Shown one piece after another: positions 6,613-64,000 of a DNA stretch of 64,000 bases. The first letter of the stretch is position 1. Each line of letters starts with the position of its first letter. The DNA is from Phoronis australis (Eukaryota > Animalia > Phoronida). The stretch lies in assembly GCA_002633005.1 (NCBI GenBank), contig NMRA01000341.1, positions 415,660-479,659 on the forward strand, given 5' to 3'. A program made the translations under genes and the position numbers. The notes beneath the pieces were generated by a model that worked only from the letters and a program-made list of their open reading frames with translations, ran no database searches and was not told the origin of the DNA.

Positions 6613-7519
6613 ACTAGTACACTACTTGATAAGAGCTTCTTAAAGTGGTTAAAATATCTAAACCTACGGGACACACTTCAAACTAGAGTAACTGTTACAT
6701 GAGCCGACGCATTTACACGATTTTTGTAGGCAGCAAGTAGGAGTTTTCACTGACATTGCAATTGACAATCACAGTTTTCACTTGGACGCCTCCAGCGCAG
6801 GAAAACTCGTCTGCTCCACGTGCCAAGTCAGCCATTACATTAACAAAACGTAAATTGGGCGCTTCGTGAACATTTTCATATGCGTTGAACATGTTTGTTA
6901 ATGTCTTTATTCTATGATTCGCTCAGCTTGGCCTTACTCTGTGCGTATACTCCAAGAGGGTGCAAATACTGGCGCAGCTGCTCGTCAACCTATGGGATCT
7001 CAAAAAAAACCGGCCAGATCTCGAACCGCCAGTTCACATTTTTTTGGAATTGATTAACCTTATCCTCAGAACTAGCCCGATCTGATTCCACTCGATTGAT
7101 TACTTTTTGTGATTTAGTAACACCTTATTGACAAGTTTGCATATTTAGCTACATATCTACAAAATAAAGATTTTAACTTGGTATATGCTGTATTCTGAAA
7201 GTAGACTGCTGTCGAATTTAATTTTCGACTTTTTTGCCAACACATTATTAATTGAAATACGCAACCATGCCTTTCATATAAAAACGACATGATCAAATTT
7301 TATTTGAAACAAATAGTCAATTATATTGTTTGATTTCAAACTCTCTTAGAGTTTTCGGAAAAAACATTTCGCTTTCGGTTTTATGCGTTTTAGCAGATTA
7401 GTAAATACTCTCCCGATTTGTCTCCCGACTTGGCCGCGGTACTGCAAGCAAGAAGTTTTCCAAAATAAATTTTTTCTTCCACTTTTTAACTATACACACC
7501 ACAACTTTTGAGAACCCCC

Positions 7520-7738: not shown

Positions 7739-8220
7739 CTAAAACAGAAAGAAAAAATGACCTTGAAATTCTATTTCCAGTTGCTGTTGCAAGAAGGTTA
7801 CTGCCTGATATTTACTTTCTGGATACCAACACAAACAAATGCATATACATGTACATGTAACGCGTTGTACTGAGACTAATAAGCTACAACATTACCAACA
7901 AATCTGTGTTTTCGGCTATCACTTCTGACCAGGTGACACCACTTTGAGTTGATAAATACACTGCAAATTTCGCCAACATACAGAAACGACCATTGATTAG
8001 GGAACTAGGTTATGGAACTAATTTGCATACAATATGGGGTCAATTGGCACGCGTTAACGACATTTACTGAAACAGAATGGTCTGATGTAAATTTTTAATT
8101 AAGTGTTGTTATCAAACGATAGGTTTCTATAGTTTGGGAAAGTGGATGCTGGTGTAAACCTCGAACTGATGACGAATCTGTTGTATTCGAAGTTCAGTAC
8201 ATTTCATAATGCACAATACA

Positions 8221-8372
8221 CATGGGCGTATTCAGGATTTTGAGTTGGGGGGGGGGCAGGGCAGACTATTAGCCTGGATTTTCCCCTCAGGCATTTGCAG
8301 CCCCGAACTGCCAAATGGAATCAGGGATATTTTAGGGCGGGCCATGGCCCCCTATGTCTAAATCCGCCACTG
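8221..8372. mobile_element. Small MITE-like element with hAT-type ends
   Basis: Imperfect inverted ends catgggcgtattcag / ctaaatccgccactg; no clear TSD. Confidence 0.4.
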
Positions 8373-8684
8373 ATACAAGTGAAGGTAAAGCATAGTTCCA
8401 GAGGCAAGCAGCAAAGTTGTAGCAAGTATTGTCTTCTGGTTTCCTTTATCTCGCAAATTGAGCCGAGCTTCAAAAGAGGTTGAACATGCCAAGATTTCGC
8501 GAATTTCCGATCGTTCGGTATAACATAGGAAGTGTCAAATGTAGCAGCGTAGTGTGGTAGTGTAGCTCGGTCCGTCAATGCGACATCTGTAAATAACTAA
8601 GTATAGAATACTCAATTATTCTAGTTACAGCAACTGGCAGTATATCCAGGAGAACTGACTGTCTTCACTAGAGAATATGTAAGG

Positions 8685-8704
8685 TATATATACATATACA
8701 TATA

Positions 8705-8738
<34 letters not shown>

Positions 8739-8771
8739 CATGTATATATGTATGTATGCATGTATATATAT
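8685..8771. repeat. (TA)n/(TATG)n microsatellite
   Basis: Seen directly. Confidence 0.9.
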
Positions 8772-9329
8772 ACAACTTATAAATGTGTGGGCTGCATGCA
8801 CTGAACTTCACGACTCAAATTTCTACAGGAAATAACAATCAACAATTCTATGAACATTTAGAGCAATCACAAAAAATGATTATTGTTTTTGCCATACACG
8901 GTCATGGTCAACTGCGTCAGGCAAGTGAATGACTTTTACATAATCTAGTTTACTTCAGAGTGTGAGGATGAACCGGAAGGACCACTTACTGTCTAAACTG
9001 GAAACCAACCAAGTAAGCATTAACATCAGGAATTTTCTAGCAAAGTAATAATAATGATATTAAAAAATCAATATACTCAATAAATAGGCAACATGAAATT
9101 CATGACACTGATTGTATGCCCCAGGGCGTCTTTACTTTACACTCCTTAAGTACAGTGTAAGTCCAAGCGTACAGTGCACTTTCGTAAATAGGGACATACA
9201 TGTATAAACGAAAATTTCGTTTAAAGTAGAAGTTCACGAATGTTTCCCTAGTTCCTAAAGACGACACACTGTTTAACAAGAGCAAAGCGCAAACGTTGTG
9301 CTTCTAGGCGTGTTTATTTGTATCATAAA

Positions 9330-10180
9330 AATGGCCAATAGACGGCTCAGAATACATCGAACCCATCCAAAAATGCGAAGGTGTCGTCGTCTCTCGGACG
9401 TATTAGCCAAATTTTAAGAAAATCCGTCAAAGAACTCCAAAGATACAAAGGGAAGCGTAAAAAACTGCCATTAGGAACCACAGCAGTAGTCGAATTCACC
9501 CACCTGCTGTCAAAGTAATAGGAATGCAATTGCAAAATTTCAAAAACACCTTACAAGGTGTTTAGGAGATACAGCCATGGATGCGAAAAATGTCATTAGG
9601 CGCCACCACAGCAGAGAGAGACCCATTTGAAAGTCTGCATTGTGTCATGGTTTTGTCAGTAGAAACACCTCTGCCAATTTTCATATTAATACAGAAGCAA
9701 ACGGCAAAACAAACTAAAATATAATTAACATGGCCAGTAATTGCTGCATAATACGTCAAATCCGTCACAGAATGAAGAGCTGTCGACGTCTTGATAATAT
9801 AAATTGCTTTGTCCAATTTCATGAAAAAGCATCAAGGAACTCTGAAGTTACATATGACAACGTAAAAAATAAATTGCCATTAGGGGGCACAGCTGTGGTT
9901 GGATCAGTCTGAAACTGCCCGCTTTCTGTTGTCATCTTCAAAGGAGCACATCTGCTAAATTTCTGAAAGATCTTGCACAGTAGTTGAACACGTCCGAAAA
10001 ATAACGTCACCCTCGGTCTTCTGATCAGGAACACATCTACAAATTTCAATAATAACCCTTCAAATAATTTGGTCTATTAAGAGGGTGTGATGTAAAATAC
10101 GTAATAAAAAAATAAAATGGCCACCAAGTGCCACATAATACGTCAATTCCGTCCGAAAAGTAAAAGACTATCTGCAAATT
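9330..10180 (+). repeat. Internally repetitive dispersed repeat; related inverted copy at about 45780-46890
   Basis: Recurrent units gccattagg..cacagc and cataatacgtcaa.tccgtc; gtcttctgatcaggaac and tagggggcacagctgtg match reverse complements near 46390 and 46560. Confidence 0.65.
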
Positions 10181-45791: not shown

Positions 45792-46882
45792 AACTGGTGT
45801 TAATTTTTGAACGTGTCGGACTACTGTGTCATTGACGGATTTTTGTGAAATTTGGCAAATCGGTTTGTGTAAAGGAATCAACGATACCTTTTCAATTTTG
45901 GAGTAGTCGTATTCTTTGCCACCCAGTGGCCATTTATTATTTCGGGTCCATTTTTGGCGTCCACCTATTTATCCGCCACAGTCAAATCCAAAGATGACTA
46001 TGAAACTTAGCGGTTGTGTTTAGTCATGGGAACATCGTGGCGGACATAATTTTGGATGACTTGGACAATTGTGGCTGTATTAGAGACGACCNAACTGGTG
46101 TTAATTTTTGAACGTGTCGGACTACTGTGTCGCCCCCCAGTGGCGATTTTGTTTTTGTGTCTGCTGCCGAATCGGCTCTTTAACCCTTTAAGAGATCTTT
46201 GTAAAGTTTGGCAACTCTGTTCCTATGGAGCCGAATACAAACATTAACGATTGCGGAATTCTATTGAGGAGACGACAACGCCTTCCCATTTTAATTCGAA
46301 CTGACTGGCGTTTTCTGAGTACATTTTTTACGTCCGCCTATCTATTCGCCAAACCGCTCAAAGAATCATTATGTAAATTGGCAGTTACGTTCCTGATCAG
46401 AAGACAGCAGCTGGTATTGATTTCCCGACATGTTTGACTATTCTGGCGCCCCCTAGTAGCTTTTGTTTTACAATACGGCTTTAAACATTTAAACGACCTT
46501 TATTAAATTTTGCTCCTATGCAGATGGCAAGAGATGACGAGTTCCACACGAACTGGAGCACAGCTGTGCCCCCTATAGAGTCAATTTATTATTAACGTTT
46601 GTCTTTGTATCTTTGGAGTTCATTGACGGATTTTTGTGAAATTTGGCAAATCGGTTTGTGTAAAGGAATCAACGATACCTTTTCAATTTTGGAGTAGTCG
46701 TATTCTTTGCCACCCAGTGGCCATTTATTATTTCGGGTCCATTTTTGGCGTCCACCTATTTATCCGCCACAGTCAAATCCAAAGATGACTATGAAACTTA
46801 GCGGTTGTGTTTAGTCATGGGAACATCGTGGCGGACATAATTTTGGATGACTTGGACAATTGTGGCTGTATTAGAGACGACC
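45792..46882. other. Duplicated segment across the n at 46092, probably two haplotypes
   Basis: 45830-46091 equals 46621-46882, and 45792-45830 equals the sequence starting at 46093. Confidence 0.85.
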
Positions 46883-46900
46883 GCAAAACTGTAATTTTAT

Positions 46901-47550
46901 TGTAACGGGGGCGGTATCTACGACCAAGGCGCCCCGATTTTACGAGCCCGGTGCGGACTGAGGGTGATGTTGAAAACTAAAAGTTGGTGAATAATACATA
47001 GGTTTATTGTAAGAATATATATATATGACTACAATATTTCACACTTACAAGCAATCCAGTTGTTCCATGACTTAGTATCGCAGCGTTGTGATTCATACAG
47101 TTCTGATACACGGGCAAGCCAGTCGCTGATTAATACTTGTGTGTGCAAGAACGGGGCAATTTGGTTATTCAGATCCGAAAGGTGAGGTGCAATCAAGCGC
47201 GGGAGGAGCCCGAGAATTGCTGGGGCTAAACTATTGGCAACCAAGTTCGGGAGGAGCCCGAAAGCTGCACAAACAGTTGCAATTTGGTGTGAGTGAAGGT
47301 GTACATGTTTGCTTCTTGAACTCTGCGACTGGACTCCTCGTGTCTGACAGAGACAAAGCTTAAGTACACAATTTCAACCAATCAGACACGATCTGAAGGG
47401 CAAGGCCCATAGCTCCTAGCTTCTGACCATATTTGGCCATGTCCAAAGGACTCAACATCATAGGAAAATTCCATACGTAATACACAGCTTGACCACTAGA
47501 GGGCGCATATATCTTTCTTACATAATCATGTCCAGGGCACACCTGTTACA
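46901..47550 (-). repeat. 3' LTR (650 bp)
   Basis: tgtaac...gttaca; near-identical to 55477-56121; AATAAA on the minus strand at 47003-47008. Confidence 0.97.
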
Positions 47551-47563
47551 CTCCCCCTGCCTC
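47551..47563 (-). other. Polypurine tract
   Basis: GAGGCAGGGGGAG abutting the 3' LTR. Confidence 0.9.
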
Positions 47564-47814
47564 AGATCTTGTCACCCCCGTGACTGATAATAAAAAATAA
47601 AATAAACAGGAGAGAACTTCAAACCACTTAAACATATCGATATCAAAATCAAACTAATAACGGCAAAAAGAAACTATCCAAACACCATGAGCAACTTACA
47701 CAGTAACAGTGCCCGTAATAAAAAAAATCAAACTAATACAAAAAAAATAAATAAAAGAAAACAATTAAGGTGCGGCCATCACCTGTACACATATAAACGA
47801 ACTAAAAACACTAG

Positions 47815-48286
47815 CTAGCTAATATAACGGCGGTATGGCTCGACGGGGACGGAACCAGTGCTGTTTGGGGGAGACATACATCCGGCCTTCTCGGTCCCAA
47901 CGCACTGCCTCGTCTCGCGCCACGGTAACTCATCAGGAAATGGCTGGGGAACGTCCCTTCTGGCGTCTACCTCTCGCCGGCGTTCTGCAGCAGCGACAGC
48001 CTTTGCATGTTTCCGGTTCTGAACCAGTATTTCTGTCGTTCCGTCGTGGCCTGTCTTGCGTTGGTGTTTTCGGCACGCGTGCCTAGCTGAAAACCTACGC
48101 TTACAATGTGAACAACAGGTAAGTTTAATTAACGGTGAGCAAGTCTTTTCGTGCCGCTTCAGCGTGTAAAATTTGGTGAACGTCCTGTCACACTCGGCGC
48201 ACTTGTATACGGGTCGAGATCGGCTGGTGGCCTCCTCTTGCTTCCCCACAGGTTGCTCCACCTCTGCAGGATCTGTCTGAAGGTCT
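47815..48286 (-). CDS. Accessory zinc-finger ORF (C2HC plus C2H2), predicted second exon of a spliced LTR-initiated mRNA
   Basis: YKCAECDRTFTKFYTLKRHEKTC and CSHCKRRFSARHACRKHQRKTGH; no in-frame ATG before the fingers; preceded by ttttttttattttgttacttcttgcAG. Confidence 0.78.
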
Positions 48287-48315
48287 CTGCAAGAAGTAAC
48301 AAAATAAAAAAAACA

Positions 48316-51043
48316 TTATAGAAACCGGGCCGGTTTCTTGATCAATCTGCCTCGGCGGTTGCGAACAACTGGGGTACTTGCTGCAGCGTGGACAGCGCCA
48401 CGGCAGCCAGTACCCGAAGAAACATTATTCTGAGCCTCACTCAGAATGTCCAGAGAGCCAGAACACAATTCACTGTCGACCTCTTCTAGTGAGCTTACCA
48501 CCTCTGCCCCCTGATCAGGCTCCGGAGTGGCATCTCGTCCCTCGTGAACTCCAGTAGGCCCATGCCACGGCTTCAAATGATCAACATGGACTACAATTTT
48601 GGGCATATCAGGTCCCTTCTGAATTTCATACAGCACATCACTTACTCGTCTAACTATCGTGTAGGGGCCCACCCACCCAAGACCAAGTTTCTGGTTAGCA
48701 GTTGGAGGGTACCATCGGAAGACCCAGTCCCCATCACGAAATTCGCGAAATTTCTCTCGGGCATCGTTAGTACTTCTTCTGGCGCTGAAAACTTGAATTC
48801 AACGCCTCCCGAGCAAAGCTCCAGGCGTCCTCCAGCGTCTGACACAGCCACTCGTTGTATTCACTGGCACATTCTGACACAACATCATCAGGAGGGTTAC
48901 CAGCTATGACATCTAAAGGTAGCGACACCTCCCGACCGAACAATAACTTGTATGGTGTGAAACCAGTGCTTTCATGCTCTGAAGAACGATATGCCATCAT
49001 GACGTGCGGTAGATGGTCGTCCNCCAGTGCTTTCATGCTCTGAAGAACGATATGCCATCATGACGTACAGTAGATGGTCGTCCCAGTCCCTCCGATGTTT
49101 GTCGACAAACATGGCCAACATCCCTTGGACCGTGCGATTAAACCGCTCCACCATGCCATCGGATTGCGGACGATATGGGGTGGTTCTAGTCTTCTGCATT
49201 CCGAGCAATTGACAAAGTTCAGAGAACAAGTTACTCTCAAACTCCCGACCCTGATCAGAATGGATGAACGTTGGTACACCAAATCTGGAGATAAACTCTG
49301 TCGCGAGTTTGTCTGCGACTGTCTGAGCCGTGTGGTTTGGTAAGGCATAAGCTTGCGTCCACTTGGTAAAGTAGTCTCCGACCACCATGATGTATTCCAT
49401 ATCATTGTACGACTTTGGAAGAGGACCAAGTATGTCCAGGGCAATGCGCTGGAATGGAGCGCCTGCTTGCCCCTGCTGAAGTGGTGCCCGACCTCTGCCC
49501 GGACCTGGTTTGCGACGTGCGCACATCTCGCAACGCTTGCATCACCTGGAAACATCACCCTGCAGCCCTGGCCAGTAGAAACGAGAACGGACGGTCCTAA
49601 TAGTCTTGTCGCGACCAAAATGTCCTGCTGTCCTTGCGTCATGCGTCAGCTTGAGAACCTGACTTCGTAACTGACGTGGAAGTACGATCACCATTCGATC
49701 ACCGCCGCCACCGGCGTCGATCCAACGCCGATACAGAACACCATCCTGCAAGCGCAAAAGGTTCCACTCAGAAAACAAACGCCGGGTACCCCAGGAGTGC
49801 CCCAATATAGCTTTAAGCTCAGGCTTCTCCGACGACTCAGACATGAATTTCACAGCTGGACCTATGACCTTATCGTTCCGTTGCAGAGCACGAAGCTCAT
49901 CTTTATTCCAGGTAGGCAGCCAGGCGTCACTCTCAGGGTTTTCACGTTCCTTGGTAACACGTCTTCCCCGTCGCACTGCAGCGACGACTCTTTGACCAGC
50001 ACATTGGTCACAATCAGATCACTGGCATCTGCGATATGGTTTCCGGGACAAACCATCAGCGTTACCGTGGTGATTACCCTTCCGGTGCTTAATCTCGTAG
50101 TCATATGTGTCGAGAACCGCTATTCACCTGGCAACCATGTCGACGGGTTCCTTAAAATTCTTTAACCACTTCAGGGAATGATGGTCTGTTCTTATAAGGA
50201 AGTTGCGGCCCCACAAATAATGCCGGAACCGCTTAACAAACGTAACAACAGCCAAAAGTTCACGATACGTTGTGCAGTAGCGCTGTTGTGACGCTGACAG
50301 AGTTTGGCTGGCATAGGCGATGACCCTCTCCTCGCCATCCTGTTCCTGAGATAGTACTCCTTAGATGCCAAAGGCCGATGCATCCGTGTCAGGGATTAAA
50401 CTTCCCTGCCGCCGGGGATACGCTAACACTGGATGGTTGGTAAGCAGTATCTTCAGCTGGTCAAATGCCAATTGGCACGTGTCATCCCACTCGAATCGTT
50501 GGTTCTTCCCGGTCAAACGTGACAACGGTGCTGCAACAGTGGAGAAGTCAGGAATGAATCTTCAGTAATATGAGGCCAATCCAAGGAAACTGTGTACTTC
50601 CGAAACTGAGGATGGTGTCTCCCAATCTGCAACCGCAGCAACCTTTTCAGGGTCACAACTTACTCCTGCCTCAGACACTACGTGGCCTAGGAAAGGTGCC
50701 TCCCTCCGAAACAGACTGCACTTGGTCGGCTTAAGTCTCAGACCGGCTTCCCGCAACCGTAGAAAAACTGCTCGGAGATCGCAGAGGGTGTCGTCGAAAG
50801 TCTTTGCAAAGACCAGGATGTCGTCAATATACAGTAAACACTTGTCCCTTTGCATTCCAGCAAAAACTACCAAACGCTCAAAACTAGATGCTGCATTTGC
50901 CAGACCAAAAGGCATAGACGTGAACTCAAAAAGTCCCCTATGAGTGGCGAATGCAGTCTTTGACATGTCTTTCTTGGCCATTGGCACCTGCCAATATCCA
51001 CTGGCCATGGCAAGGGTGGTAAACCATGACATGCCCGCGAGGG
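48316..51043 (-). pseudogene. pol: RT C-terminal part, RNase H and integrase (disrupted copy)
   Basis: YIDD; IN HHCC (HDARTAGHFG...C..C), ALDILGPLP, IHSDQGREFES, DGMVERFN; GPY motif; stop TAA at 48316-48318; frameshifts and stops present. Confidence 0.95.
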
Positions 51044-51044
51044 N

Positions 51045-52210
51045 ACTGACGTGGAAGTACAATCACCATTCGATCACCGCCGCCACGGATGTCGATCCAA
51101 CGCCGATACAGAACACCATCCTGCAAGCGCAAAAGGTTCCACTCAGAAAACAAACGCCGGGTACCCCAGGAGTGCCTCAATATAGCTTTAAGCTCAGGCT
51201 TCTCCGAGGACTCAGACATGAATTTCACAACTGGTCCTATGACCTTATCGTTCTGTTGCAGAGTACGAAGCTCATCTTTATTCCAGGTAGGCAGCCAGGC
51301 GTCACTCTCAGGGTTTTCACGTTCCTTGGTGACACGTCTTCCCCGTCGTACTGCAGCGACAACTCGTTGACCAGCACATTGGTTACAACCAGATCGCTGG
51401 CATCTGCGATACGGTTTCCGGGACAAACCATCAGCGTTACCGTGGTGATTACCCTTCCGGTGCTTAATCTCGTAGTCATATGTGTCGAGAACCGCTATCC
51501 ACCTGGCAACCATGTCGACGGGTTCCTTAAAATTCTTTAGCCACTTCAGGGAATGATGGTCTGAGGGTGTGCGTGTACTAGTGGTGATAGATTAACAGCC
51601 TCGATTTCGCGAGCCCTTTAAATACATGGCGAAATGGCTTGCAGCCGTGCCAACTGAATCTGAGATTGCGTAAAAAGGGTGCTTCTAAGAGAGGAAGTAA
51701 GCACGACNTTGGTCACAATCAGATCGCTGGCATCTGCGATACGGTTTCCGGGACAAACCATCAGCGTTACCGTGGTGATTACCCCTTCGGTGCTTAATTT
51801 CGTAGTCATATGTGTCGAGAACCGCTATCCACCTGGCAACCATGTCGACGGGTTCCTTAAAATTCTTTAACCACTTCAGGGAATGATGGTCCGTTCTTAT
51901 AAGGAAGTTGCGGCCCCACAAATAATGCCGGAACCGCTTAACAAACGTAACAACAGCCAAAAGTTCACGATACGTGGTGCAGTAGCGCTGTTGTGACGCT
52001 GACAGAGTTTGGCTGGCATAGGCAATGACCCTCTCGTCGCCATCCTGTTCCTGAGATAGTACTCCTGAGATGCCAAAGGCCGATGCATCCGTGTCAAGGT
52101 TAAACCTTCCCTGCCTCCGGGGATACGCTAATGCTGGATGGTTGGTAAGCAGTATCTTCAGCTGGTCAAATGCCAATTGGCACGTGTCGTCCCACTCGAA
52201 TCGCCGGTTC
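51045..52210 (-). pseudogene. Redundant pol RNase H/linker fragments from other copies or haplotypes
   Basis: LDTDASAFGISGVLSQ, RELLAVV and RTDHHSLKWL; overlapping repeats of 49670-50500 bounded by n. Confidence 0.9.
51564..51707 (+). mobile_element. Terminal fragment of the ISL2EU-like element inside gypsy RNase H
   Basis: Matches 37571-37725 from the terminus (agggtgtgcgtgtactagtggtgatagattaac...gaggaagtaagca); truncated by the n at 51708. Confidence 0.85.
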
Positions 52211-52211
52211 N

Positions 52212-53100
52212 TCCCTGCCGCCGGGGATACGCTAACACTGGATGGTTGGTAAGCAGTATCTTCAGCTGGTCAAATGCCAATTGGCACCTGGCATCCCACT
52301 CGAACCGTTGGTTCTTCCCGGTCAAACGTGACAACGGTGCAGCAACAGTGGAGAAGTCAGGAATGAATCTTCGGTAATATGAGGCCAATCCAAGGAAACT
52401 GCGTACTTCCGAAACTGAGGATGTTGTCTCCCAATTTGCAACCGCAGCAACCTTTTCAGGGTCACAACTTACTCCTGCCTCAGACACTTCGTGGCCTAGG
52501 AAAGGTACCTCCCTCCGAAGCAGACTGCACTTGGTCGGCTTAAGTCGCAGACCGGCCTCCCGCAACCGTAGAAAAACTGCTCGGAGATCGCAGAGGGCAT
52601 CGTCGAAAGTCTTTGCAAAGACCAGGATGTCGTCAATATACAGTAAACACTTGTCCCATTGCATTCCCGCAAAAACCTTCTCTACCAAACGCTCAAAACT
52701 AGATGGTGCATTTGCCAGATCAAAAGGCATAGACGTGAACTCAAAAAGACCCCTATGAGAAGCGAATGCAGTCTTTGACCTGTCTTTCTTGGCCATTGGC
52801 ACCTGCCAATATCCACTGGCCATGTCAAGGGTGGTAAACCATGACATGCCCGCGAGGGAATCTAGGCAGGTGTCTATGCGTGGGAGAGGATAGGCATCTT
52901 TCCTGGTCACTGCGTTCAACTTCCGGTAGTCGACACAGAATCGGTAGCTGGAGTCTCTCTTTCGCACCAACACGATCGGCGAGGCCCATGGCGAATCACT
53001 TGGTTCGATAACACCAGCAGCCAGCATCTTGTCGATCTCCGCATCGGCGATCTCCCGCTGAGCTATAGGTAACCGTCGAGGAGCCTGTTTAATTGGAAAA
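52212..53100 (-). CDS. pol: reverse transcriptase domain
   Basis: SPWASPIVLV, RFCVDYRKLN, LDMASGYWQ, YIDD, FLGLASYYRRF. Confidence 0.95.
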
Positions 53101-53217
53101 TGCGTCCTTAATTATAGGTTCCAAATGAGGCGGAAGATGGACAGAAACTTCGCTGACAAACGTCCCCTCAGAAATGGACCTTGGAACTATGACACTGCAA
53201 AGTGCCCTCTTCTCCGA

Positions 53218-53628
53218 CTAAAGATTGATCGACTTTCCACAGAGGTGTAAAACGTCACCCTCCGGAGCTGCACTCAAATTACAAAAATTATTTTTCAAAA
53301 AGTCTAATCCAAGAATCACCTGTGGATTGACGTCGGCGACAACAAATCGCTGCTTCAGTCGCAAGCCTGCTACGTCAAAATCAGCCACCACGCAACCGTA
53401 ATCATTAATACGCGCCCCACCTGCGCCTGACAATGAAATGAGAGTGGGTTCTAAACTACTTATATGTGAACTACTTAACTCAAAAACGTTTCTAGACATA
53501 AGAGAACAAGGCGAACCGCCGTCTATTAAAGCGGGAAACTTTTCTCCAAACAAATCCACAAAAACAAACGAACATTCTGCAAACCCGGTCGAGGCCTTGG
53601 CCGCGGACCCGACCGGTCCTAGTTTGAC
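53218..53628 (-). CDS. pol: aspartic protease, in -1 frame to gag, followed by a stop and apparent deletion
   Basis: ALIDGGS active-site variant and ILGLDFL motif. Confidence 0.85.
   Translation of the reverse strand, partial: VKLGPVGSAAKASTGFAECSFVFVDLFGEKFPALIDGGSPCSLMSRNVFELSSSHISSLEPTLISLSGAGGARINDYGCVVADFDVAGLRLKQRFVVADVNPQVILGLDFLKNNFCNLSAAPEGDVLHLCGKSINL
53585..53628 (-). other. Candidate gag-pol -1 frameshift signal
   Basis: G_TCA_AAC_TAG, 5-nt spacer, then GC-rich stem CCGGTCGGG...CTCGACCGG; protease is open in the -1 frame. Confidence 0.6.
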
Positions 53629-54695
53629 GACTCAATAGTATCTGATTTACAAGTGTTCCCCTTCCTTTCCTGGGGACATTTTCTGGCGATGTGTCCCTCC
53701 TGCCCACAGTTGTAACAGCGGATTGGTTCCCGGGGCTTTCGGTCGCTGAGCTGGCGCTGAACATCCGCTAATGCCCTCTTTATCTCTGCCATGTCAGCAT
53801 GGTCCGGCCTGTTGGTTGGACGCTCCCGCATGGTCATGACTCGTGTGTCGGGGCAGGGAGCCACATCCGAAGTTTTGTTTTTCCGGCTGCACCAGGTCCC
53901 CTCAAATGCCTCGAACTCGAGTGCATGAGAAATCGCTATGTCCACGGACAGTGGCCTCTGAAACTGTACGTGCCTCCGCAGCGCCTGGTCGTTGAGCCCA
54001 GCTATAAATTGGTCTACGACCAAAACTTCACGGGCGTCACTGGCTAACTCAGGGAATGCCAATGACGCTAGCCGTTTAACACTAAAACCATAGTCTGAGA
54101 TGTTTTCTGTTTTCCCCCTCGTCCTTCCTCGGAACTCGCATCTGTGCGCGGCGACGCGTTCTGCGGGACAGAAACGCTGCGTAAGCGCTGCTTTCAAATC
54201 GTCAAAATTCTCAGACACTTCATCGTCGAGGTCCCCTACAGCACGCAAGGCCGGCCCCCGCAGACACATGACTAACTGCATGGCCGACTCCTGCTTGTCC
54301 CAACCATTTCACCTACAAATTTTCTCGAATTGGCGAAGAAAATCTGGCCATTCACATGATTTTCCGTCAAAATGTTGTGGCACCCGTTCTTTGCGTTTCG
54401 GTAGGGCGAGCGCGTGTTGTTGCTGCTGTTTTGAATTTTGCTTGATACGGGGGGCCATCGAATCCAATCCTCCCCTGTCAGTCTGATTTACATTTATAGT
54501 GGCCTGTCGCTGATGGTCAATTAATACACTAGGCGGGCTGTTGCTTGGACAGTCGACGTATGGCATTTCAGAGGAATGGTCTCTATAATCACCAACTGGG
54601 AAAATTTCAGGCAGAGAACCCGGTTCGACGTGATTTTCTGCCGCCATAAACGAGGGAGTAAACCAATTCGACACATTTGACAAGAAACGGGCCAT
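53619..54695 (-). pseudogene. gag with CCHC knuckle and one in-frame TGA (54309-54311)
   Basis: FDGKSCEWPDFLRQFEKICR*NGWD; DQFIAGL; CYNCGQEGHIARKC. Confidence 0.92.
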
Positions 54696-55454
54696 TTTGG
54701 ATTATGGAATTGGATGAAATCAGCAAATGTAGCGTATAGAACTGAGCTTGAGGTCAGTAGATGATACTCTCAGTAATTGAAACCACTAAAACGTGTCCTG
54801 AATACGTGGAGTACACCAGACAACANACCAATTCGACACATTTGAAAAGAAACGGGCCATTTTGGATTATGGAATTGGATGAAATCAGCAAATGTAGCGT
54901 ATTTGAGCCTGAGGTCAGTAGATGATACTCTCAGTAATTGAAACCACTAAAACGTGTCCTGAGTACGTGGAGTACACCAGACAACAGTAACCGAAGACGA
55001 ATGGAGTAGCCTAACAACAGAGCGTCAACAGACATGAATCTACTTCTAGAAAATATTAAGTGGGCAACAAGTGGGCATTACTTCCCACATTCAAGCTATC
55101 GCCACCTGAATATTGCAAGTTTCGCGAGAGCAAGGTATATCCATGGAAGTTAACAGCAACACACGACAAGTTGTGAATTGATAATCGACAAGGGTATTTA
55201 GTGAAACCTCAACGGCAAATCAACTCAGGAGTACTGACAAACATGGGTTCAATGTCGCTACTATTACGTTTTGAACTTTGAACACGCAACCTTCAACAGA
55301 CGTTTGCTGTGTGAGTTAATTAATTCCTAACATCACCCAGCGAGCGTGACAAGACGTCAACGGCATGAGCAACGAAAAGAATGTCATTAACGCACGGAAT
55401 AGGCATGGACGGTAAGAAACTTTATTTTACTGCTTTTCAACATCACTCGCACAT

Positions 55455-55475
55455 ATCCGCGGGCCACGCGCACCA
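55455..55475 (-). other. Primer binding site
   Basis: TGGTGCGCGTGGCCCGCGGAT one base after the 5' LTR; imperfect His/Gly tRNA 3'-end complement. Confidence 0.75.
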
Positions 55476-55618
55476 GTGTAACGGGGGCGGTATCTACGAC
55501 CAAGGCGCCCCGATTTTACGAGCCCGGTGCGGACTGAGGGTGATGTTGAAAACTAAAAGTTGGTGAATAATACATAGGTTTATTGTAAGAATATATAACT
55601 ACAATATTCCACACTTAC

Positions 55619-55638
55619 AAGCAATCCAGTTGTTCCAT
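55619..55638 (-). CDS. Predicted first coding micro-exon (MEQLDC-L) of the accessory zinc-finger protein, inside the 5' LTR
   Basis: atcATGGAACAACTGGATTGCTT|GTAAGT; phase 2 joins in frame to the acceptor at 48286. Confidence 0.6.
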
Positions 55639-55929
55639 GATTTAGTATCGCAGCGTTGTGATTTATACAGTTCTGATACACGGGCAAGCCAGTCGCTGAT
55701 TAATAGTTGTGTGTGCAAGAACGGGGCAATTTGGTTATTCAGATCCGAAAGGTGAGATGCAATCAAGCTCGGGAGGAGCCCGAGAATTGCATGGGGCTAA
55801 ACTGTTGGCAACCAAGTTCGGGAGGAGCCCGAAAGCTGCACAAACAGTTGCAATTTGGTGTGAGTGAAGGTGTAAATGTTTGCTTCTTGAACTCTGCGAC
55901 TGGACTCCTCGTGTCTGACAGAGACAAAG

Positions 55930-56079
55930 CTTAAGTACACAATTTCAACCAATCAGACACGATCTGAAGGGCAAGGCCCATAGCTCCTAGCTTCTGACCA
56001 TATTTGGCCATGTCCAAAGGACTCAACATCATAGGAAAATTCCATACGTAATACACAGCTTGACCACTAGAGGGCGCAT
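55930..56079 (-). promoter_or_regulatory. LTR U3 promoter motifs
   Basis: CTCF-like TGACCACTAGAGGGCGCAT (56061-56079), CArG CCATATTTGG (55998-56007), CCAAT box AACCAATCAG (55947-55956), TATA-like TACTTAAG (55930-55937); all kept in the 3' LTR. Confidence 0.5.
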
Positions 56080-59000
56080 ATATCTCACTTACATAATCAT
56101 GTCCAGGGCACTCCTGTTACATATGGAAGAACCAGTGAGATACAATTACATACATTAAAAAGAACATGTTTCTTTACAATTTCACTAATATGTTTAAAAA
56201 ACACTTAAAATGTTTGACTGTTTTGGAAAATATGCCCGCCTTCTTTCCGAAAATACAGCTGACTGGCTACATAATCGGTTTCCTTTGACATTTTCCCATT
56301 GGCCTGTTTTCGTACACCGTCTGACCATTTTGTTGCGACAGGCTGGGTTTCATAATTGCGATTCTTTTGAGCTAACACGAGTTGGTTTGAAAGGGTGGCG
56401 ATTTGTCTGGAATGAAGTGCACGTGCGATATTTTAGAATGCAAACCACAGTAACAAATTTGCATTATTTTCTCTCCCTCGGTATTTTGAAAAAAAAATCA
56501 TTTACAAAATCTCTGCCGAACGTGAATTTTGCTGGTTTGCCTTAGTTTTCATGGTTCACAAAGCGTCCATGAAGAAAATGAAAAATACAACGTCTTGTAA
56601 GTCTTTGTCCATCCAGGAAAGTTCATAGTCAAAACAATTAAGATAAGAGTGATCTGGAGCAGCTCACTAGAGTACGAAAGTGCGCTATAAGAAGGTGCCC
56701 AAGTGCAAAGGCGCACTAGTCCTAAGTTACACTAGTTGGATGGTCTTCTAAAAGGTGGAACTAAGCCATTAAAATGCAATTTTATTTTTGTCGCGCTATT
56801 CTACGTTGTCCATTCCCAAAAGCAGTTATGCCAAAAATAATTTCGTTGCATACTGTTTCCTATTTTACTGTATACCTCATTTCCAAAGGTTGTCATGAAG
56901 TTCAGTATGCATAAGACTTGGATGTCACATTAAAGTACTGTGCCGCCACAAGTATCGCGGCAGTGCAGTGTCAATTGTAGTCACTTGCGCGGATGACTTT
57001 GAGTATCACAGCTGCCAATCTACGTTACAGGATTTTTTAGTTGGATTATATTCGATTTTGTGGCATAATTGAGTCAATACGACGGTAACTGTAAAACGAC
57101 TCGCCCAGAGACCATAACAATCAAGTTGTTGCCAATTCACAAACAAGAAGTTTTTCTGCTCAACCACATTTACAGGAACAAATCTCAAAAGGTATCCCAC
57201 ACTCGAATTGCCCAAAAACCACTTACTTCTAAGGTAATAATGACTTACGGAGAGGTCCCACGTTTTGAAAAACATTTTCTCCACTGAACTAACGGCAAAC
57301 TGGCTTTTCAAAATCCAAGACCCCTGTAAGTGACTATCACCAATTCAAAATTAGGTTCAACACCTTCAAATTTGTGACATTCATGGAGTAAAACACACTT
57401 ATCACTTCAATTTCACTTGGCTGGTGGGCAAATTAGCAACCAGTCAGAACCAAACTGCAGAGGGGCCTGAGCTGTAATAACAAGGCTGGCACCAGAGGGA
57501 TAAACCATGAAACACAACAATGAAATTCGCTAAATTACAACGTTTTTAACGTTTGAGGATCGCCTTTAGCACAGGACGAGCCTCACGCGGCCACGCTCAG
57601 CAGCGAAACATTGGCTATTAACATAGGGGGAGGCAGGGGACAACCTCCTCTAAGACCACCAACAGCAAATAAAACAAACAAGTACCGAGTGAATATCCCT
57701 GACTCACAGGGCAAATTGGTAATGCAATGCCGAAAGGTAAAACACCTTGATTTCACAACCCCAGGTCACGACCACAAAGGCCACACGTCAACCGCGGACA
57801 GTGGTGCAGGATGCATCTGCCTGCTCGTGTCCGTAATATCCCACCCCGGGGTCACTCACAAGTGTGCGAGTCCACAAGAATTTGAAACTATGAAAGGGCT
57901 CCTGCTGTATGCCTGACCCCTGCCCCATATGGGGAGTAAGATTTCATTTTGCCACCCCCTATTGCAAACTTTGGATATCTTTGCAATCAGATTTTATAAC
58001 TGGGAACGAAATAAATCAATTCCATGTTGTGCATGAATATAATAAAAGAAGAAACATAGAGACTTTTAAGCTTATGGAGGAAAAGTGAAGCTTTGGAACC
58101 CCCCCTGAGAGTCATTGCAGAAGAAAAATAAAAATTTAGGGCAATATTTGACTGGCCGGGAGGATTTGGCGGCCGAGCTGCCAAAAGAAGCTCCTCCCAC
58201 ACTTTTTTGGGAACAAGGATGCGGTAATCTTTGAAAAACAAGTGGTCCCCCCGGGTATCCCACGCTGATCCGCTAGTGGGTGACGGGGAAAAGTTGCTGT
58301 AGCCCGAGTCAACCACGAGAGATCGAGCTCGCCGCGTCCGCGAGCAAGTTGCCAGACGTCCGGTTGGCGCCCAAGTTTTCCAAGGGGAGATTCGATTTCC
58401 GAACCCATCCTCTGTGGCTACGATCCCACATTACTGTAGTTTACCGGATTTCGACTTGGGGGCAGATTTCGAAAAATTAGGGTCCCTGTAGATAGGAAGC
58501 TGGTGAGGCCCCCTCCCCACTACCTGACCCCGTTGCAATCCTTAAATCGTACCTTCGGTGTTTTTTTCTAGTTCTCACGTCTTTCGCTCCCGTATAAATT
58601 TTAGACGAAAAGGGCTTCCTTTCGTAGAGACTGAAGTTGACCGGAAAAGTGACCTTTTCGGGCGGCACATCCCCCAGGCCTGTCCCCCTTCTCAGTTTGG
58701 ATGCAGGCTTCTCCAATACTTTCAATCGTAGCACATCGTGATCTACGTATCGAGTTGACGTGTTTTCCACAATTTCTCGGCGGGTAACGCGTGATACGTT
58801 CATGACATTGGGTGGTGCCATTTTGAAGATTCTTAGATAACCAACAGGAAAGATAGCAAACTGTTCGACCAATGTAACTCTACTTGACATTTTAACGAAG
58901 CCGAACATTCGTTCATAGGGCATACAAACTTATAAACAACACTACACTGGGCAGCGACGCGGACTTTCGTTTTAGAAATATGCCATACATGAACTGCTGT

Positions 59001-59954
59001 CATATTAAGCTGTGAAACCATACTGGATTAAATATTTAATCTATGATGAAACCTTCTCAATTCATCATGCAAACGTTACTGGTTAATGTTAATTTTTTAC
59101 TTTTACTGTGTCAAGGTGCACTGAAAACAAAGAAAAAAATGTCACTGTACTTTTTTCTGTGAGAAATGCATATATTTATGCATAGACAAATTCGTCATTT
59201 AGGGTTTGTAGGAAGGCAAGTTGGCTTTGAGAAAGTTGTCACGGAAATGGAATCTGCCTCTACGCACTACGAAAATTTCTCTATACCTTGCCATTTGAGT
59301 CCAGACAGCAGCAGGTTTGAGATATAAAGTAAGGCTTGTCTCGTTTATTGAGAATTCAGTGTAGTTTAGGCATACACCATAAAGAGGGAAGCAAAAAAAA
59401 ATCAATGTGAGATATGTTTTGGTAGGCCTACTATGGAAAGTCCAACGTTCTGTACTCTGTTCACTTTTGTAGCAGTAGGAATGAAATAGTCACATCCAAA
59501 TCTGTGCATTGTGTAATAGTCATGAGTTATGACCAAAGCCGTTTGTAGCATAGTTTTTGCAAGCACAGTTCAGCTCTTGCAGTCAAGAGGAGGCACACAG
59601 AGCGACCTAGCAAGATAAGTGTTGGTTTCCTTTACTCAAGGTCGTGGGTCGAGTCCCACTGAGGCACATTGATAGACCCTTGAATCAGATCTCAAGCTCC
59701 CCAGCTCAGTTTAAGGTGTATTAATCAAGTGTAAAATGATTCCAAGTGATCAGTGAAATGGGCTCACTTAAGCGTCTTTGCATGTCTGATCCAACGTGTA
59801 CCGGACCGCCTGCAATTATTTTTGACATAAAATTTCACTTGTCCACTGCATTGGTGAGATTATGCTATTTGAGTAATTTTAAAAACTTGTACATAAGTAA
59901 GCGCAAGTGTAAAACCAGCCAAATCTACAACTCATCAAATTACAAAACATGACC

Positions 59955-59960
59955 TTTATT
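59955..59960 (-). terminator. Candidate SPG7 polyadenylation signal
   Basis: AATAAA about 80 nt after the stop codon. Confidence 0.45.
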
Positions 59961-60038
59961 GTAATCTTGTTTTAGGCTAGAACAAGAAAGCTTAGGGAGA
60001 AAGTATGAGAATCAGAAGACAAGAGACAAATTCTAATG

Positions 60039-60218
<180 letters not shown>

Positions 60219-60589
60219 CTACGAAATTGAAAGACAAAAACCGGTCGTTAAATAAATAAGTAAAAGCCTACGGACAACTTAAATAAAAAAAGCCCAAAAC
60301 AATTCTGAGCACAACAGGAATTATTTTGTTAAGTGTTAATTGTTAACTGAGGGACATCTTTCACAAAGTACATTCTAAACAAACACTGAGAAAACATACT
60401 GCATTTGATTACAAGCCATTAAGTTTTCTGTACCAATAATTTCCCTATCCAGGGTTGGTTTTTGATACGTGATCATCAGGACACTGAATAAGGATAATTG
60501 GTAAACAGTAAAAGCACTGACTTTCAACAGCTTCCAGTCCAAATACAATGCTGTTAATTTACAGAATACATTGGGTAAAACGAAATTCT

Positions 60590-60838
60590 GAGCCCCGTTT
60601 CAACAAAACTGGTGTAGCTAAGACAAATCTTAAACTGAAGTAAATTATAAAATAAAACTCAAATTTGTTTTAAGTCCGTTCCAAGAAAATGATCTTAAGT
60701 TTAACTTTTAAGTTTTTGACTTAAATTTTATCTTAAGTTCGAAGCATTTTACTGGATGTGGAAGTTTCAAAGTCTGGATGCTGAGATAAATCTTAGACTT
60801 AAGTAAAAAGCTTCAGCTGGGTTCTTGAAAGGAGCCTC
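60590..60838. mobile_element. Harbinger-like MITE in an SPG7 intron
   Basis: Imperfect inverted ends gagccccgtttcaacaa / ttcttgaaaggagcctc with internal cttaag repeats. Confidence 0.4.
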
Positions 60839-60913
60839 GAACTCCTCACTGTGCGACAACATCCCTGCCTAAGACAGAAATACTTTGTTATATAGTGTTA
60901 AAACAGTCCTTAC

Positions 60914-61158
60914 CAATAAAAGTTTGTCAGCATTCTCCTTTAATACATGTTCTGCATTCTTGTAGGCTCTGCCGACAAGTGCACGTGCTTCATCATCGAT
61001 TGTGTGAGCCAACTTTTTACTGTATGGTTTCATGCCAAACTGGCTCTCCTGTTCGACAGTGGCGGGAAATGACAGTAGGCCAACCACGTCGCTCATTCCA
61101 AAACTGCGAATCTGGTCGTATGCTAGCTGGGTCACCCTCTTCAGGTCATCCTGGGCCC
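60914..61158 (-). CDS. SPG7: Paraplegin exon (245 bp), peptidase M41 domain
   Basis: (G)AQDDLKRVTQLAYDQIRSFGMS...KPYSKKLAHTIDDEARALV...NADKLLL; AG and GTAAGG boundaries. Confidence 0.93.
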
Positions 61159-61663
61159 CTGGTGTTGAAATAAAGAGGCATTCAGTGGCATTCATCTTAA
61201 GTCTGATACGCTAAAAGAAATTTTGAAACACAATGATCGGGTATTGAAATGATGTTGCATAATAGCACCGAAAAACATTTTACATCGAACAGCTACCCTT
61301 AAGGCAGAATACGAGATGCGAAAGACTGATTTTCTTATGCCACAAGCTAGTAAAATGGGGGACTTCCACTGCAAATCTCCAGATATCTTCACTTCATTAA
61401 GAGCTGGCCCCATTACATTAAAGGAAAAAACATACACACTAGTATCAGATTCTACACACTTCAGTAACCATTTGTAAATGTAAAAGCAAAAAAATGTAAG
61501 TGACATGAATGCAACTCTCTAACTCAAAAATGCCAGAAGAAATCAAAAAAGTCACCTATGAACATTAGCAACAACAGCTTTCAAAAACGAACTGTTAGTA
61601 GCTACAGTACACACCCTTGAGCTAATAGTTATCACAGCATAACATTGTAAACTTATTACACTA

Positions 61664-61843
<180 letters not shown>

Positions 61844-62459
61844 TCAAAATTGACTTTTGCTTTGGACCATTTACCTTTACAGGATTAGCATAACTCGTTC
61901 TTAACTTTAATTAACGACTTCTCGGATAAGAAAGAGTTGATGATTCCCTATTCCTTGACACCAAGCTCACCACATTTACTTGTCTGACTTGGTGGATAAT
62001 ATTACGAGCATTGTCTTAGGCAATAACAAAATGTCAGTTCCTTCCAATACCAGAAACTCCTTCTCATCAGTTTTGGGAACACGGAATGCTCCATATTTTT
62101 TACAGAACTGGGGTTCACTACAGCTTTAAAGGTCTTAATAAACTGCACGACTCATCGAAATTTATACAACTGTCAAACAATTACAACAAAAAAGCCACTC
62201 GAAGACCGCACCAACACTAATCAATTACTTATTGTTTACTGCAACACTGACCACGGATACTTGAATTATAGTGTGGCCTCACACCACCAGGAGGCGCAGC
62301 AAGTAAAATGAAACACATGTATCTATTCATTGACAGAATGAGTTAATTTTTGGCTTCATTTCCTTCCCTCATCCGACAATAATGTTTAAACTTAATTCCA
62401 CTAAAATGTTTGTTTTGAAATACATGAACTCTTGATTTATGCAAACCATAGCGCCATAC

Positions 62460-62543
62460 CTCTTCTTTAGAGTGTAACTTGTGATCAGCAGGCATGTACT
62501 GAGCAAAACCCAAGGCACTGCTTGTTCGAGGAACAATAGACAC
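62460..62543 (-). CDS. SPG7: Paraplegin exon (84 bp), copy A
   Basis: VSIVPRTSSALGFAQYMPADHKLHSKEE; PRT..ALGFAQ is SPG7-like rather than AFG3L2-like. Confidence 0.9.
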
Positions 62544-63284
62544 CTGCAACAAGGAACAGGAGAGACCTGAGAAGCTACTCAATTACCACCTGGAATGTCA
62601 GACACCTGACACATGCGAATGGTCAGAAGATGTCTCACAGTGACTAACAAAACAAAGCTCTACTGAGACATGTTAAGTTTGGTTGACAAACAAAATACAA
62701 CACATTTAAATCATGATACAAACTCTCCAATTTTGGGCAGTCTGTAAGATTTGCGACACCGAAATTGGAGCAAACTGAGATTTCTTGATTATGAAAATTG
62801 GAGCACGGACAATTTTGTCATTCTTTATATTTCTCATCCAATATTACCTATTTATAAATATTTGGAATAAGCTCCAAAATAATAATTTTTCACTGTGTCA
62901 CACTAGAGAATTTTTACAGTAAGGGTATCAAGAACTTTGCAACAAGGTGCAATTGTCCTTTGTATCCCTCAGTAAGATGACTTTGCAAGACCTTAAACAA
63001 AACCGGCAGCCTTGTCGTTCATATTTCACTAACATCAACTGACTGACCCTGAGTAAANGTTTACTGCAACACTGACCACGGATACTTGAATTATAGTGTG
63101 GCCTCACACCACCAGGAGGCGCAGCAAGTAAAATAAAACACATGTATCTATTCATTGACAGAATGAGTTAATTTTTGGCTTCATTTCACTCCCTCATCTG
63201 ACAATAATGTTTAAACTTAATTCCACTAAATTGTTTGTTTTGAAATACATGAACTCTTGATTTAGGCAAACCATAGCGCCATAC

Positions 63285-63368
63285 CTCTTCTTTAGAGTGT
63301 AACTTGTGATCCGCAGGCATGTACTGTGCAAAACCCAAGGCACTGCTTGTTCGAGGAACAATAGACAC
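63285..63368 (-). CDS. SPG7: Paraplegin exon (84 bp), copy B, probably allelic duplicate
   Basis: Same peptide as copy A with synonymous differences; lies within the 824-bp duplication across the n at 63058. Confidence 0.8.
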
Positions 63369-63872
63369 CTGCAACGAGGAACAGGAGAGACCTGAGAAGC
63401 TACTCAATTACCACCTGTAATGTCAGACACCTGACAAATGCGAATGGTCAGAAGATGTCTCACAGTGACTAACAAAACAAAGCTCTACTGAGACATGTTA
63501 AGTTTGGTTGACAAACAAAATACAACACACTTAAATCATGATACAAACTCTCCAATTTTGGACAGTCTGTAAGATTTGGGACACAGAAATTAGAGCAAAC
63601 TGAGATTTCTTGATTCTGAAAGTTGGAGCATGGACAATTTTTTCATTCTTTATATTTCTCATCCAATATTACCTATTTATGAATATTAGGAATAAGCTCC
63701 AAAATAATAATTTTACACTGTGTCAAACTAGAGAATTTTTACAGTAAGGGTATCAAGAACTTTGCAACCAGGTGAAATTGTCCTTTGTATCCCTCAGTAA
63801 GAGGCCTTTGCAAGACCTTAAACAAAACCGGCAGCTTTGTCGTTCATATTTCACCAACACCAACTGACTGAC

Positions 63873-63988
63873 CCTGAGTAAAGCGTCCGTGTGCTTCAAC
63901 AACCAGCCAACCAGAGCATGTCCTGCTTCGTGATATGCAACGACGTTCTTCTCTTGAGCTGTCAACACACTGGTCTTTTTAGCCACGC
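63873..63988 (-). CDS. SPG7: Paraplegin exon (116 bp) with HEXGH zinc-binding motif
   Basis: (G)[38 protein letters not shown]; ttttccAG and GTCAGT boundaries. Confidence 0.93.
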
Positions 63989-64000
63989 CTGGAAAACGGA

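Follow-up and report, generated by a model that had tools for sequence, protein, structure and literature searches.

The window analysed here, 64,000 nucleotides (nt) of Phoronis australis DNA, carries on the minus strand at 56121-46901 a Ty3/gypsy long terminal repeat (LTR) retrotransposon of Metaviridae type. Its third open reading frame (ORF3, 48286-47815), which sits in the env slot between the pol stop codon and the polypurine tract, encodes two zinc fingers. That ORF3 is a spliced gene with its own acceptor is well supported; that the product of this accessory gene binds the LTR DNA of the element and tunes its transcription is, in our judgement, evenly balanced between true and false. 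The preliminary description of the element had proposed a spliced, element-encoded accessory gene other than env and under selection, and this proposal has held: RNA reads show the acceptor in use, expressed copies differ by more silent changes than expected, and 24 of 80 related loci carry a finger ORF.

ORF3 and its splice acceptor

The window ORF3 holds a C2HC finger (C29, C32, H45, C49; 48207-48139) followed by a C2H2 finger (C58, C61, H74, H80; 48120-48046). Both fit the pattern C-x2-4-C-x12-H-x3-5-H/C with a beta-beta-alpha fold, and the finger region is basic, with 15 Lys or Arg versus 3 Asp or Glu, so that the ligands, the basic stretch and the position between pol and polypurine tract are as first described. 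The absence of an ATG upstream of the fingers was likewise confirmed in all frames. The suggested check against the hidden Markov model zf-C2H2 gave a Pfam match (E value 6e-4) that falls below the curated cut-off of the family. No env-like fusion glycoprotein or transmembrane family was matched by Pfam in ORF3 of the window or of its relatives, which by this mark separates the gene from errantivirus env. A word-based protein search with the window ORF3 gave no match, and an exhaustive one returned multi-finger proteins only, aligned over the fingers at 23-41% identity.

The pol stop codon (TAA, 48318-48316) is directly followed by a T-rich tract and a cAG ending at 48287, as had been noticed; this site shares the top pyrimidine score among the 273 YAG sites of the element. 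Its use was examined in three RNA runs (X2, X3 and X4, three samples of one study with the same species label), about 19% of each run being read, and in one contig set. Reads were placed on two stretches, 46880-48950 and 47800-48460, and a junction was listed when at least 3 reads at 2 starts supported it. The reads derive from other copies of the element, mostly 90-99% like the window. Across the acceptor, from the ORF side to the pol side, read depth falls from 20.3 to 1.7 in X4, from 13.1 to 1.9 in X3 and from 5.0 to 0.9 in X2 (first-mate-plus side); the step is clearest in X4, where the signal comes almost entirely from one strand. Two groups of X4 reads, 6 and 3 in number, depart at the acceptor from the window sequence, each group into an upstream sequence of its own. 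Because these reads leave the window exactly there, we conclude that the acceptor before ORF3 is used in RNA. Some reads continue unspliced from ORF3 into the integrase tail.

Seven X3 reads join ORF3 to the integrase at 49481-49452 through a 4-letter shared stretch and without GT-AG ends. They look like a DNA copy from which about 1.2 kb (49481-48279) has been deleted, and with it the acceptor and the integrase tail. In the ORF3 tail, 69 letters (47832-47902) are missing from three X4 reads, through either a deletion copy or a minor splice. Many RNA reads also cross between unrelated flanks and LTR copies (47550-47552 and 46900-46901), 50 of them from one flank in X4, which suggests host read-through at other loci.

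All reads over 47931 carry a 2-letter indel relative to the window (9/9, 11/11 and 24/24), and many carry a second one at 47848-47849. Beyond 47931 the tail frame of the window differs from that of the expressed copies and its last residues are not those of the family; the intact ORF of 163 amino acids (aa) initially reported does not stand in this form. Variants were scored among those listed (40 of 66): 20 lie in 48285-47935, 10 in the tail (47930-47850), and the remaining 10, outside both parts, went unscored. In the first part 10 of 20 variants are silent versus 5.7 expected (P = 0.03; the other two frames give 3 and 7). Of the 10 tail variants, 7 are silent when read in the frame of the expressed copies versus 2.3 expected (P = 0.002), and 1 is silent in the window frame; the variants are not independent events, and the silent excess is an indication, not a ratio of nonsynonymous to synonymous rates (dN/dS). 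No listed variant affects a zinc ligand other than silently. Little weight, on the other hand, attaches to the earlier contrast between an open ORF3 and a broken gag and pol: about ten breaks (counted by hand) within some 6.4 kb predict fewer than one per 470 nt, so that an open ORF3 of this length is expected by chance, in a copy that is likely an assembly patchwork.

Finger ORFs in related elements

Relatives were collected by an integrase alignment search, from which the best 80 of 291 related metagenome loci were used; they are cited below by handles of the type L003. A finger ORF was defined as at least 80 aa with a finger motif, 3' of the integrase core. The 24 loci with such an ORF in sense compare with 1 of 80 in antisense. 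Many of the other loci are short, and many reach the polypurine tract within about 500 nt and truly lack a finger ORF. In a quick tree with Shimodaira-Hasegawa-like approximate likelihood ratio test (SH-aLRT) supports, the branch of the window (22 rows, support 92) has a finger ORF in 11 of the 14 loci with at least 800 nt downstream. Finger ORFs are also found in two other supported branches (97 and 96) and in two single rows; they either arose once and were later lost in places or were gained several times.

An acceptor-like site lies 0-7 nt (limit 10 nt) before an in-frame ATG in 16 of the 25 finger ORFs. ATGs so preceded number 18 of 62 in finger ORFs versus 81 of 2044 (4.0%) in gag and pol and 61 of 765 (8.0%) in antisense, with acceptor thresholds that were fixed after examples had been seen, which lessens the force of the comparison. 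A branch of five loci (L039, L052, L057, L058 and L061) mostly has no acceptor before the ATG. The acceptor directly before the ATG is the strongest argument for a gene in this slot that would be read from a spliced RNA, with a first exon that would usually be noncoding. Since most relatives have their ATG beyond the acceptor, this exon would not have to code for anything in them.

Relatives in the branch of the window have in common a first finger of the form CP-x3-4-C, a helix with H-W-x3-H and, past the second finger, the motif N-x2-Y/F-I/V-x-P; the window ORF3 matches them in its zinc ligands and in the Asn of the last motif. A further tail motif shared with L003 and L024-type proteins was convincing by eye and not significant when tested. 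Pfam searches with the relatives' ORFs matched finger families only, without a match for 8 of 18 proteins and with no chromatin-reader or enzyme family. A profile search with the relatives' ORF3 returned 7 proteins, one or two of them the loci's own products and none informatively named, and no relatives were found among viral contigs. The finger alignment of the relatives was too variable for use as a search profile.

In L008 pol is followed by two separate finger ORFs (6776-7369 and 7773-9392); the ATG of each is immediately preceded by an acceptor-like site, and the second contains a long charged region. Three loci read from the end of pol into the fingers in one frame (L011:4407-5702, L012:3623-5230 and L029:4833-5957); L011 and L012 keep the acceptor and the ATG inside the fused frame.

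Element anatomy and the first exon

Both LTRs (TG...CA), a primer-binding site (PBS) and a polypurine tract are present. The LTR pair differs by 12 substitutions and 2 indels across 651 columns (98% alike). Gag is followed by protease, reverse transcriptase, RNase H and integrase, as identified by Pfam, and the nearest named integrases, 57-67% identical, are those of the bivalves Mytilus and Pinctada and the snail Littorina. Pfam found no chromodomain at the integrase C-terminus, only Integrase_p58_C / SH3; by this mark the element is not a chromovirus. The features, all on the minus strand, are as follows.

55477-56121, minus: 5' LTR (TG...CA), 645 nt
55769-55832, minus: 15-nt motif in two copies (55832 and 55783), 5' of the TATA box, a candidate cis element
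55662-55667, minus: TATAAA; an initiator-like TCA lies 29 nt 3', and the predicted +1 is the A of the LTR ATG
55613-55638, minus: LTR ATG (55638) and phase-2 donor GTAAGT (55618), the proposed exon 1
55579-55584, minus: AATAAA poly(A) signal; counterpart in the 3' LTR at 47008-47003
55462-55475, minus: PBS-like TGG... stretch directly 3' of the 5' LTR
53619-54695, minus: gag (Retrotrans_gag, one CCHC knuckle), interrupted by a stop at 54311-54309
48316-53631, minus: pol (protease, reverse transcriptase, RNase H, integrase with p58 C-terminal domain), with several stops or frameshifts and N-flanked duplicated blocks
48287-48315, minus: polypyrimidine tract and cAG acceptor, used in RNA
47815-48286, minus: ORF3 exon (acidic start, C2HC finger, C2H2 finger, extra strand and helix)
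47551-47561, minus: polypurine tract
46901-47550, minus: 3' LTR, 650 nt

The 15-nt motif of the LTR is partly self-complementary. As to the PBS-like stretch, the window contains no tRNA gene. Five single Ns lie inside the element, each at duplicated blocks, and the 4-5 bp flanks of the element do not match as a target-site duplication (4-6 bp expected of gypsy). Given these Ns with duplicated flanks and the mismatched target-site flanks, we regard the copy as a likely patchwork of the assembly, or as a recombinant; the gypsy family call is unaffected. N-flanked duplications also occur outside the element (45829-46882 and 62234-63358) and are consistent with overlap joins in the assembly.

ORF3 would be expressed from a subgenomic RNA that starts at the LTR promoter and joins a short first exon to the ORF3 acceptor, as retroviral env RNA does. 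In the family of the window the start codon must come from upstream and would be supplied by this exon; the chance that the LTR ATG is its source falls just short of even, the source otherwise being a gag-derived or other first exon. The distance from ATG (55638) to 55619 is 20 nt (phase 2), and 20 + 472 = 492 nt make 163 codons and a stop, with a predicted acidic start as in the relatives. ATG and donor are present in both LTRs, as had been reported, and the donor at 55618 is the only donor-like site 3' of the LTR TATAAA. The ATG is also retained in RNA reads, including copies with a 2-letter insertion next to it. In L011, L012 and L046 the LTR has an initiator-like site that is followed, about 30-55 nt further on, by a donor-like site. 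The TATA-to-initiator spacing is 28-29 nt in L011, L012, L019 and the window, and in the window it places +1 on the A of the LTR ATG. Ribosomes start poorly at an ATG on the cap, and because the predicted cap position coincides with the ATG, its role as start codon is doubtful.

L025 resembles the window in having no ATG after the acceptor. Its single LTR GTAAGT has no open in-frame ATG upstream, so that this locus gives the LTR-ATG model no independent support. A pol-ORF3 fusion through the integrase-tail donors at 48645 and 48498 was rejected, as neither has an in-frame ATG path to the acceptor used. The 30 letters of upstream exon sequence seen in RNA are too short to reveal whether they supply a start codon.

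Function, alternatives and known systems

A model of residues 1-117 of the window exon 2 comprises two beta-beta-alpha fingers, an added strand and a long helix (predicted local distance difference test, pLDDT, 84), and the model of the L003 ORF3 is similar (pLDDT 78). PDB 2DRP, a two-finger peptide (Tramtrack) on DNA, is, in one search each, the first match of the L003 model (E value 7e-4, template-modelling score 0.77 on the target) and of the window model (Z 4.5, root-mean-square deviation 4.0, 58 aligned). For the window model no structural match reached E 0.001, and a wide search gave none at Z of at least 5, a result uninformative on fold novelty. The likeness to the 2DRP module lies in the tandem fingers and the added strand predicted by both models; the window ORF3 differs in having no BTB or other effector domain and no TGEKP linker, and in its C2HC first finger. 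To judge from the models, a basic two-finger module with an acidic start best fits a small transcription factor, RNA-binding and chromatin roles also being possible. The protein would be nuclear and bind DNA, with the element's own LTR as its target. The name regulator of the element, used in the preliminary description, is one that we infer from fold and position.

Several observations weigh against this reading or parts of it. Neither of the two upstream exons seen in X4 is the LTR exon, and comparison by eye matched neither of them to a donor on the list for 48290-64000; host exons that splice into silent copies are a possible source. The apparent deletion copy that has lost the acceptor may account for some of the drop in depth there. 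Neither an LTR-to-ORF3 joint nor a loose end at 48286 is among the joints listed in X2-X4, although the LTR donor is covered; a few partly aligned reads per run are unlisted, and rare use or use in another tissue is possible. The in-frame fit of the LTR ATG to ORF3, which stands as arithmetic, is not rare, since 11 of the 33 donor-like sites of the element pass the same test, and donor-like sites are not enriched in the LTRs overall (18 sense versus 12 antisense in 6.7 kb, L025 left out). With no joint listed, so common a fit and a predicted +1 on the ATG, the earlier identification of exon 1 with the LTR ATG exon is not upheld. When 140 finger proteins are ranked by a profile of 11 relatives' ORF3, the window ORF3 comes 72nd, and the resemblance of its tail to theirs falls short of significance (p 0.07-0.36); on these comparisons, which give no support to orthology, the window ORF3 would be either strongly diverged from theirs or separately gained. 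One listed tail variant creates a stop in a minority of reads. Finally, the scores of the fold matches are low, and since DNA complexes dominate the PDB, a match to one would be expected of any C2H2 pair.

The same spliced gene may act on RNA instead, exporting unspliced genomic RNA in the manner of Rev or CERV and possibly as a gag-ORF3 fusion, which we consider unlikely. C2H2 fingers can bind RNA, as in TFIIIA and JAZ, and a weak zf-C2H2_jaz match to the window ORF3 (E value 0.07) favours such a role; the best fold matches of the models, however, are DNA complexes. A strong acceptor obliges an element to bring its intron-retaining RNA out of the nucleus; Cer1 does so by means of CERV, whose spliced RNA has exons in common with gag (accessible text of PMC10309623). 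A phase-2 donor-like site with upstream in-frame ATGs does lie in gag at 54312, but it coincides with the gag stop of this copy and may be private to it. No gag-to-ORF3 junction is among the joints listed in X2-X4, and a fusion is unneeded in most relatives, which have their own ATG after the acceptor.

Less probable still is a protein that counters host silencing or steers integration by binding host chromatin or host factors rather than the LTR. Long acidic or coiled-coil tails in L008, L025, L028 and L068 would suit it, as would the fingers in frame with the integrase in L011, L012 and L029, a position like that of chromodomains in chromoviruses; captured chromatin readers are known, as the Copia MBD in the accessible text of PMC6673714. 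Yet no chromatin-reader or enzyme family was matched, and in two of the three fused loci the acceptor and ATG persist.

That ORF3 in the family of the window is a fading relic, with no start of its own, an LTR ATG too near the cap and an acceptor that now traps host transcripts, seems to us very unlikely. This would agree with the lack of an ATG before the fingers, the predicted transcript start on the LTR ATG, the non-LTR nature of all upstream exons seen and the tail frames that vary among copies. It is opposed by the silent excess in both parts of ORF3, by the zinc ligands, at which no listed variant is non-silent, and by the LTR ATG that the reads retain. Recent capture of a host zinc-finger exon by this copy alone, which the preliminary description had named as a refutation, or an assembly chimera, is largely refuted and has next to no probability left: the copy is a patchwork without matching target-site flanks and its best protein matches are multi-finger proteins, but ORF3 is covered by reads of several haplotypes at 90-99%, some unspliced into the integrase tail, the protein searches found no close host homolog, and the 24 relatives have the same layout.

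A wider and rather improbable proposal is that several gypsy branches of aquatic invertebrates are complex retrotransposons, in which a spliced RNA encodes a sequence-specific zinc-finger transcription factor of the element's own; that such genes, in some elements two of them, arose repeatedly; and that the family of the window moved the start codon into the LTR. With the start codon in the LTR, the regulator would be made only from RNA that is correctly started and spliced. A widespread finger gene in the env slot would give simple gypsy elements a regulatory layer of Tat/Rev type.

Spliced expression is the textbook route for a third ORF of errantivirus type. It is stated for ORF3s in the accessible text of PMC5408684. 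Errantiviruses and other env-bearing Ty3/gypsy elements (PMC13524379, in the part accessible) share with the window a third ORF after pol; the window ORF3 differs in having no fusion protein, signal peptide or transmembrane family, and the words zinc and C2H2 do not occur in the accessible text of that metazoan env survey. The closest working parallel is CERV of Cer1, a gypsy-type element of C. elegans: in the accessible text of PMC10309623 it is an ORF other than env that occupies the env slot, is expressed by splicing and encodes a nuclear regulator of its element with a possible zinc site. Factors of the CERV type are marked by N-terminal exons in common with gag and by H/M/G domains. CERV differs in its 517 aa, in five exons shared with gag, in a Cys-rich loop instead of C2H2 fingers and in its restriction to Caenorhabditis. 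LTR elements of bdelloid rotifers are comparable in their repeated capture of unrelated, family-specific and separately transcribed cargo in a non-env ORF3; this cargo is a GDSL lipase, a DEDDy exonuclease, or coiled-coil or transmembrane (TM) proteins, and zinc is absent from the accessible text (PMC5408684). The extra ORFs of plant elements (sense in Athila and Bagy2, antisense in Retand and Grande) also lie between pol and the 3' LTR, some spliced and some nuclear, with proposed Tat/Rev-like roles; they belong to plant lineages and have TM, SMC-like or transposase-28 domains, no C2H2 pair being described in the accessible text of PMC7264820.

The literature searched yielded no account of a gypsy element with a C2H2 ORF3; Repbase, Dfam, GyDB, supplements and subscription papers lie outside that scope, and curators may have noted such ORFs. 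In the mollusc and annelid surveys PMC6238403 and PMC8556966 the words ORF and zinc do not occur in the main text, as far as accessible. The finger gene is a real, lineage-wide and apparently undescribed variation on ORF3 genes expressed by splicing. In animals, C2H2 finger proteins are mostly treated as repressors that hosts direct at retroelements (bioRxiv 10.1101/2022.11.29.518450, accessible part), and on the wider, rather improbable proposal above the elements would wield the same class of protein that animal hosts use against them. The gene would add a class of cargo to the known ORF3 types and offers a direct test of the protein on its own LTR or RNA. For annotators, an ORF3 of an invertebrate gypsy element is not env by default, and such acceptors can trap host transcripts. 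Extra ORFs after pol that have no finger motif were also seen among the relatives, in L036 (1630-2007 and 2079-2450), L053 (8893-9447) and L074 (2040-2450).

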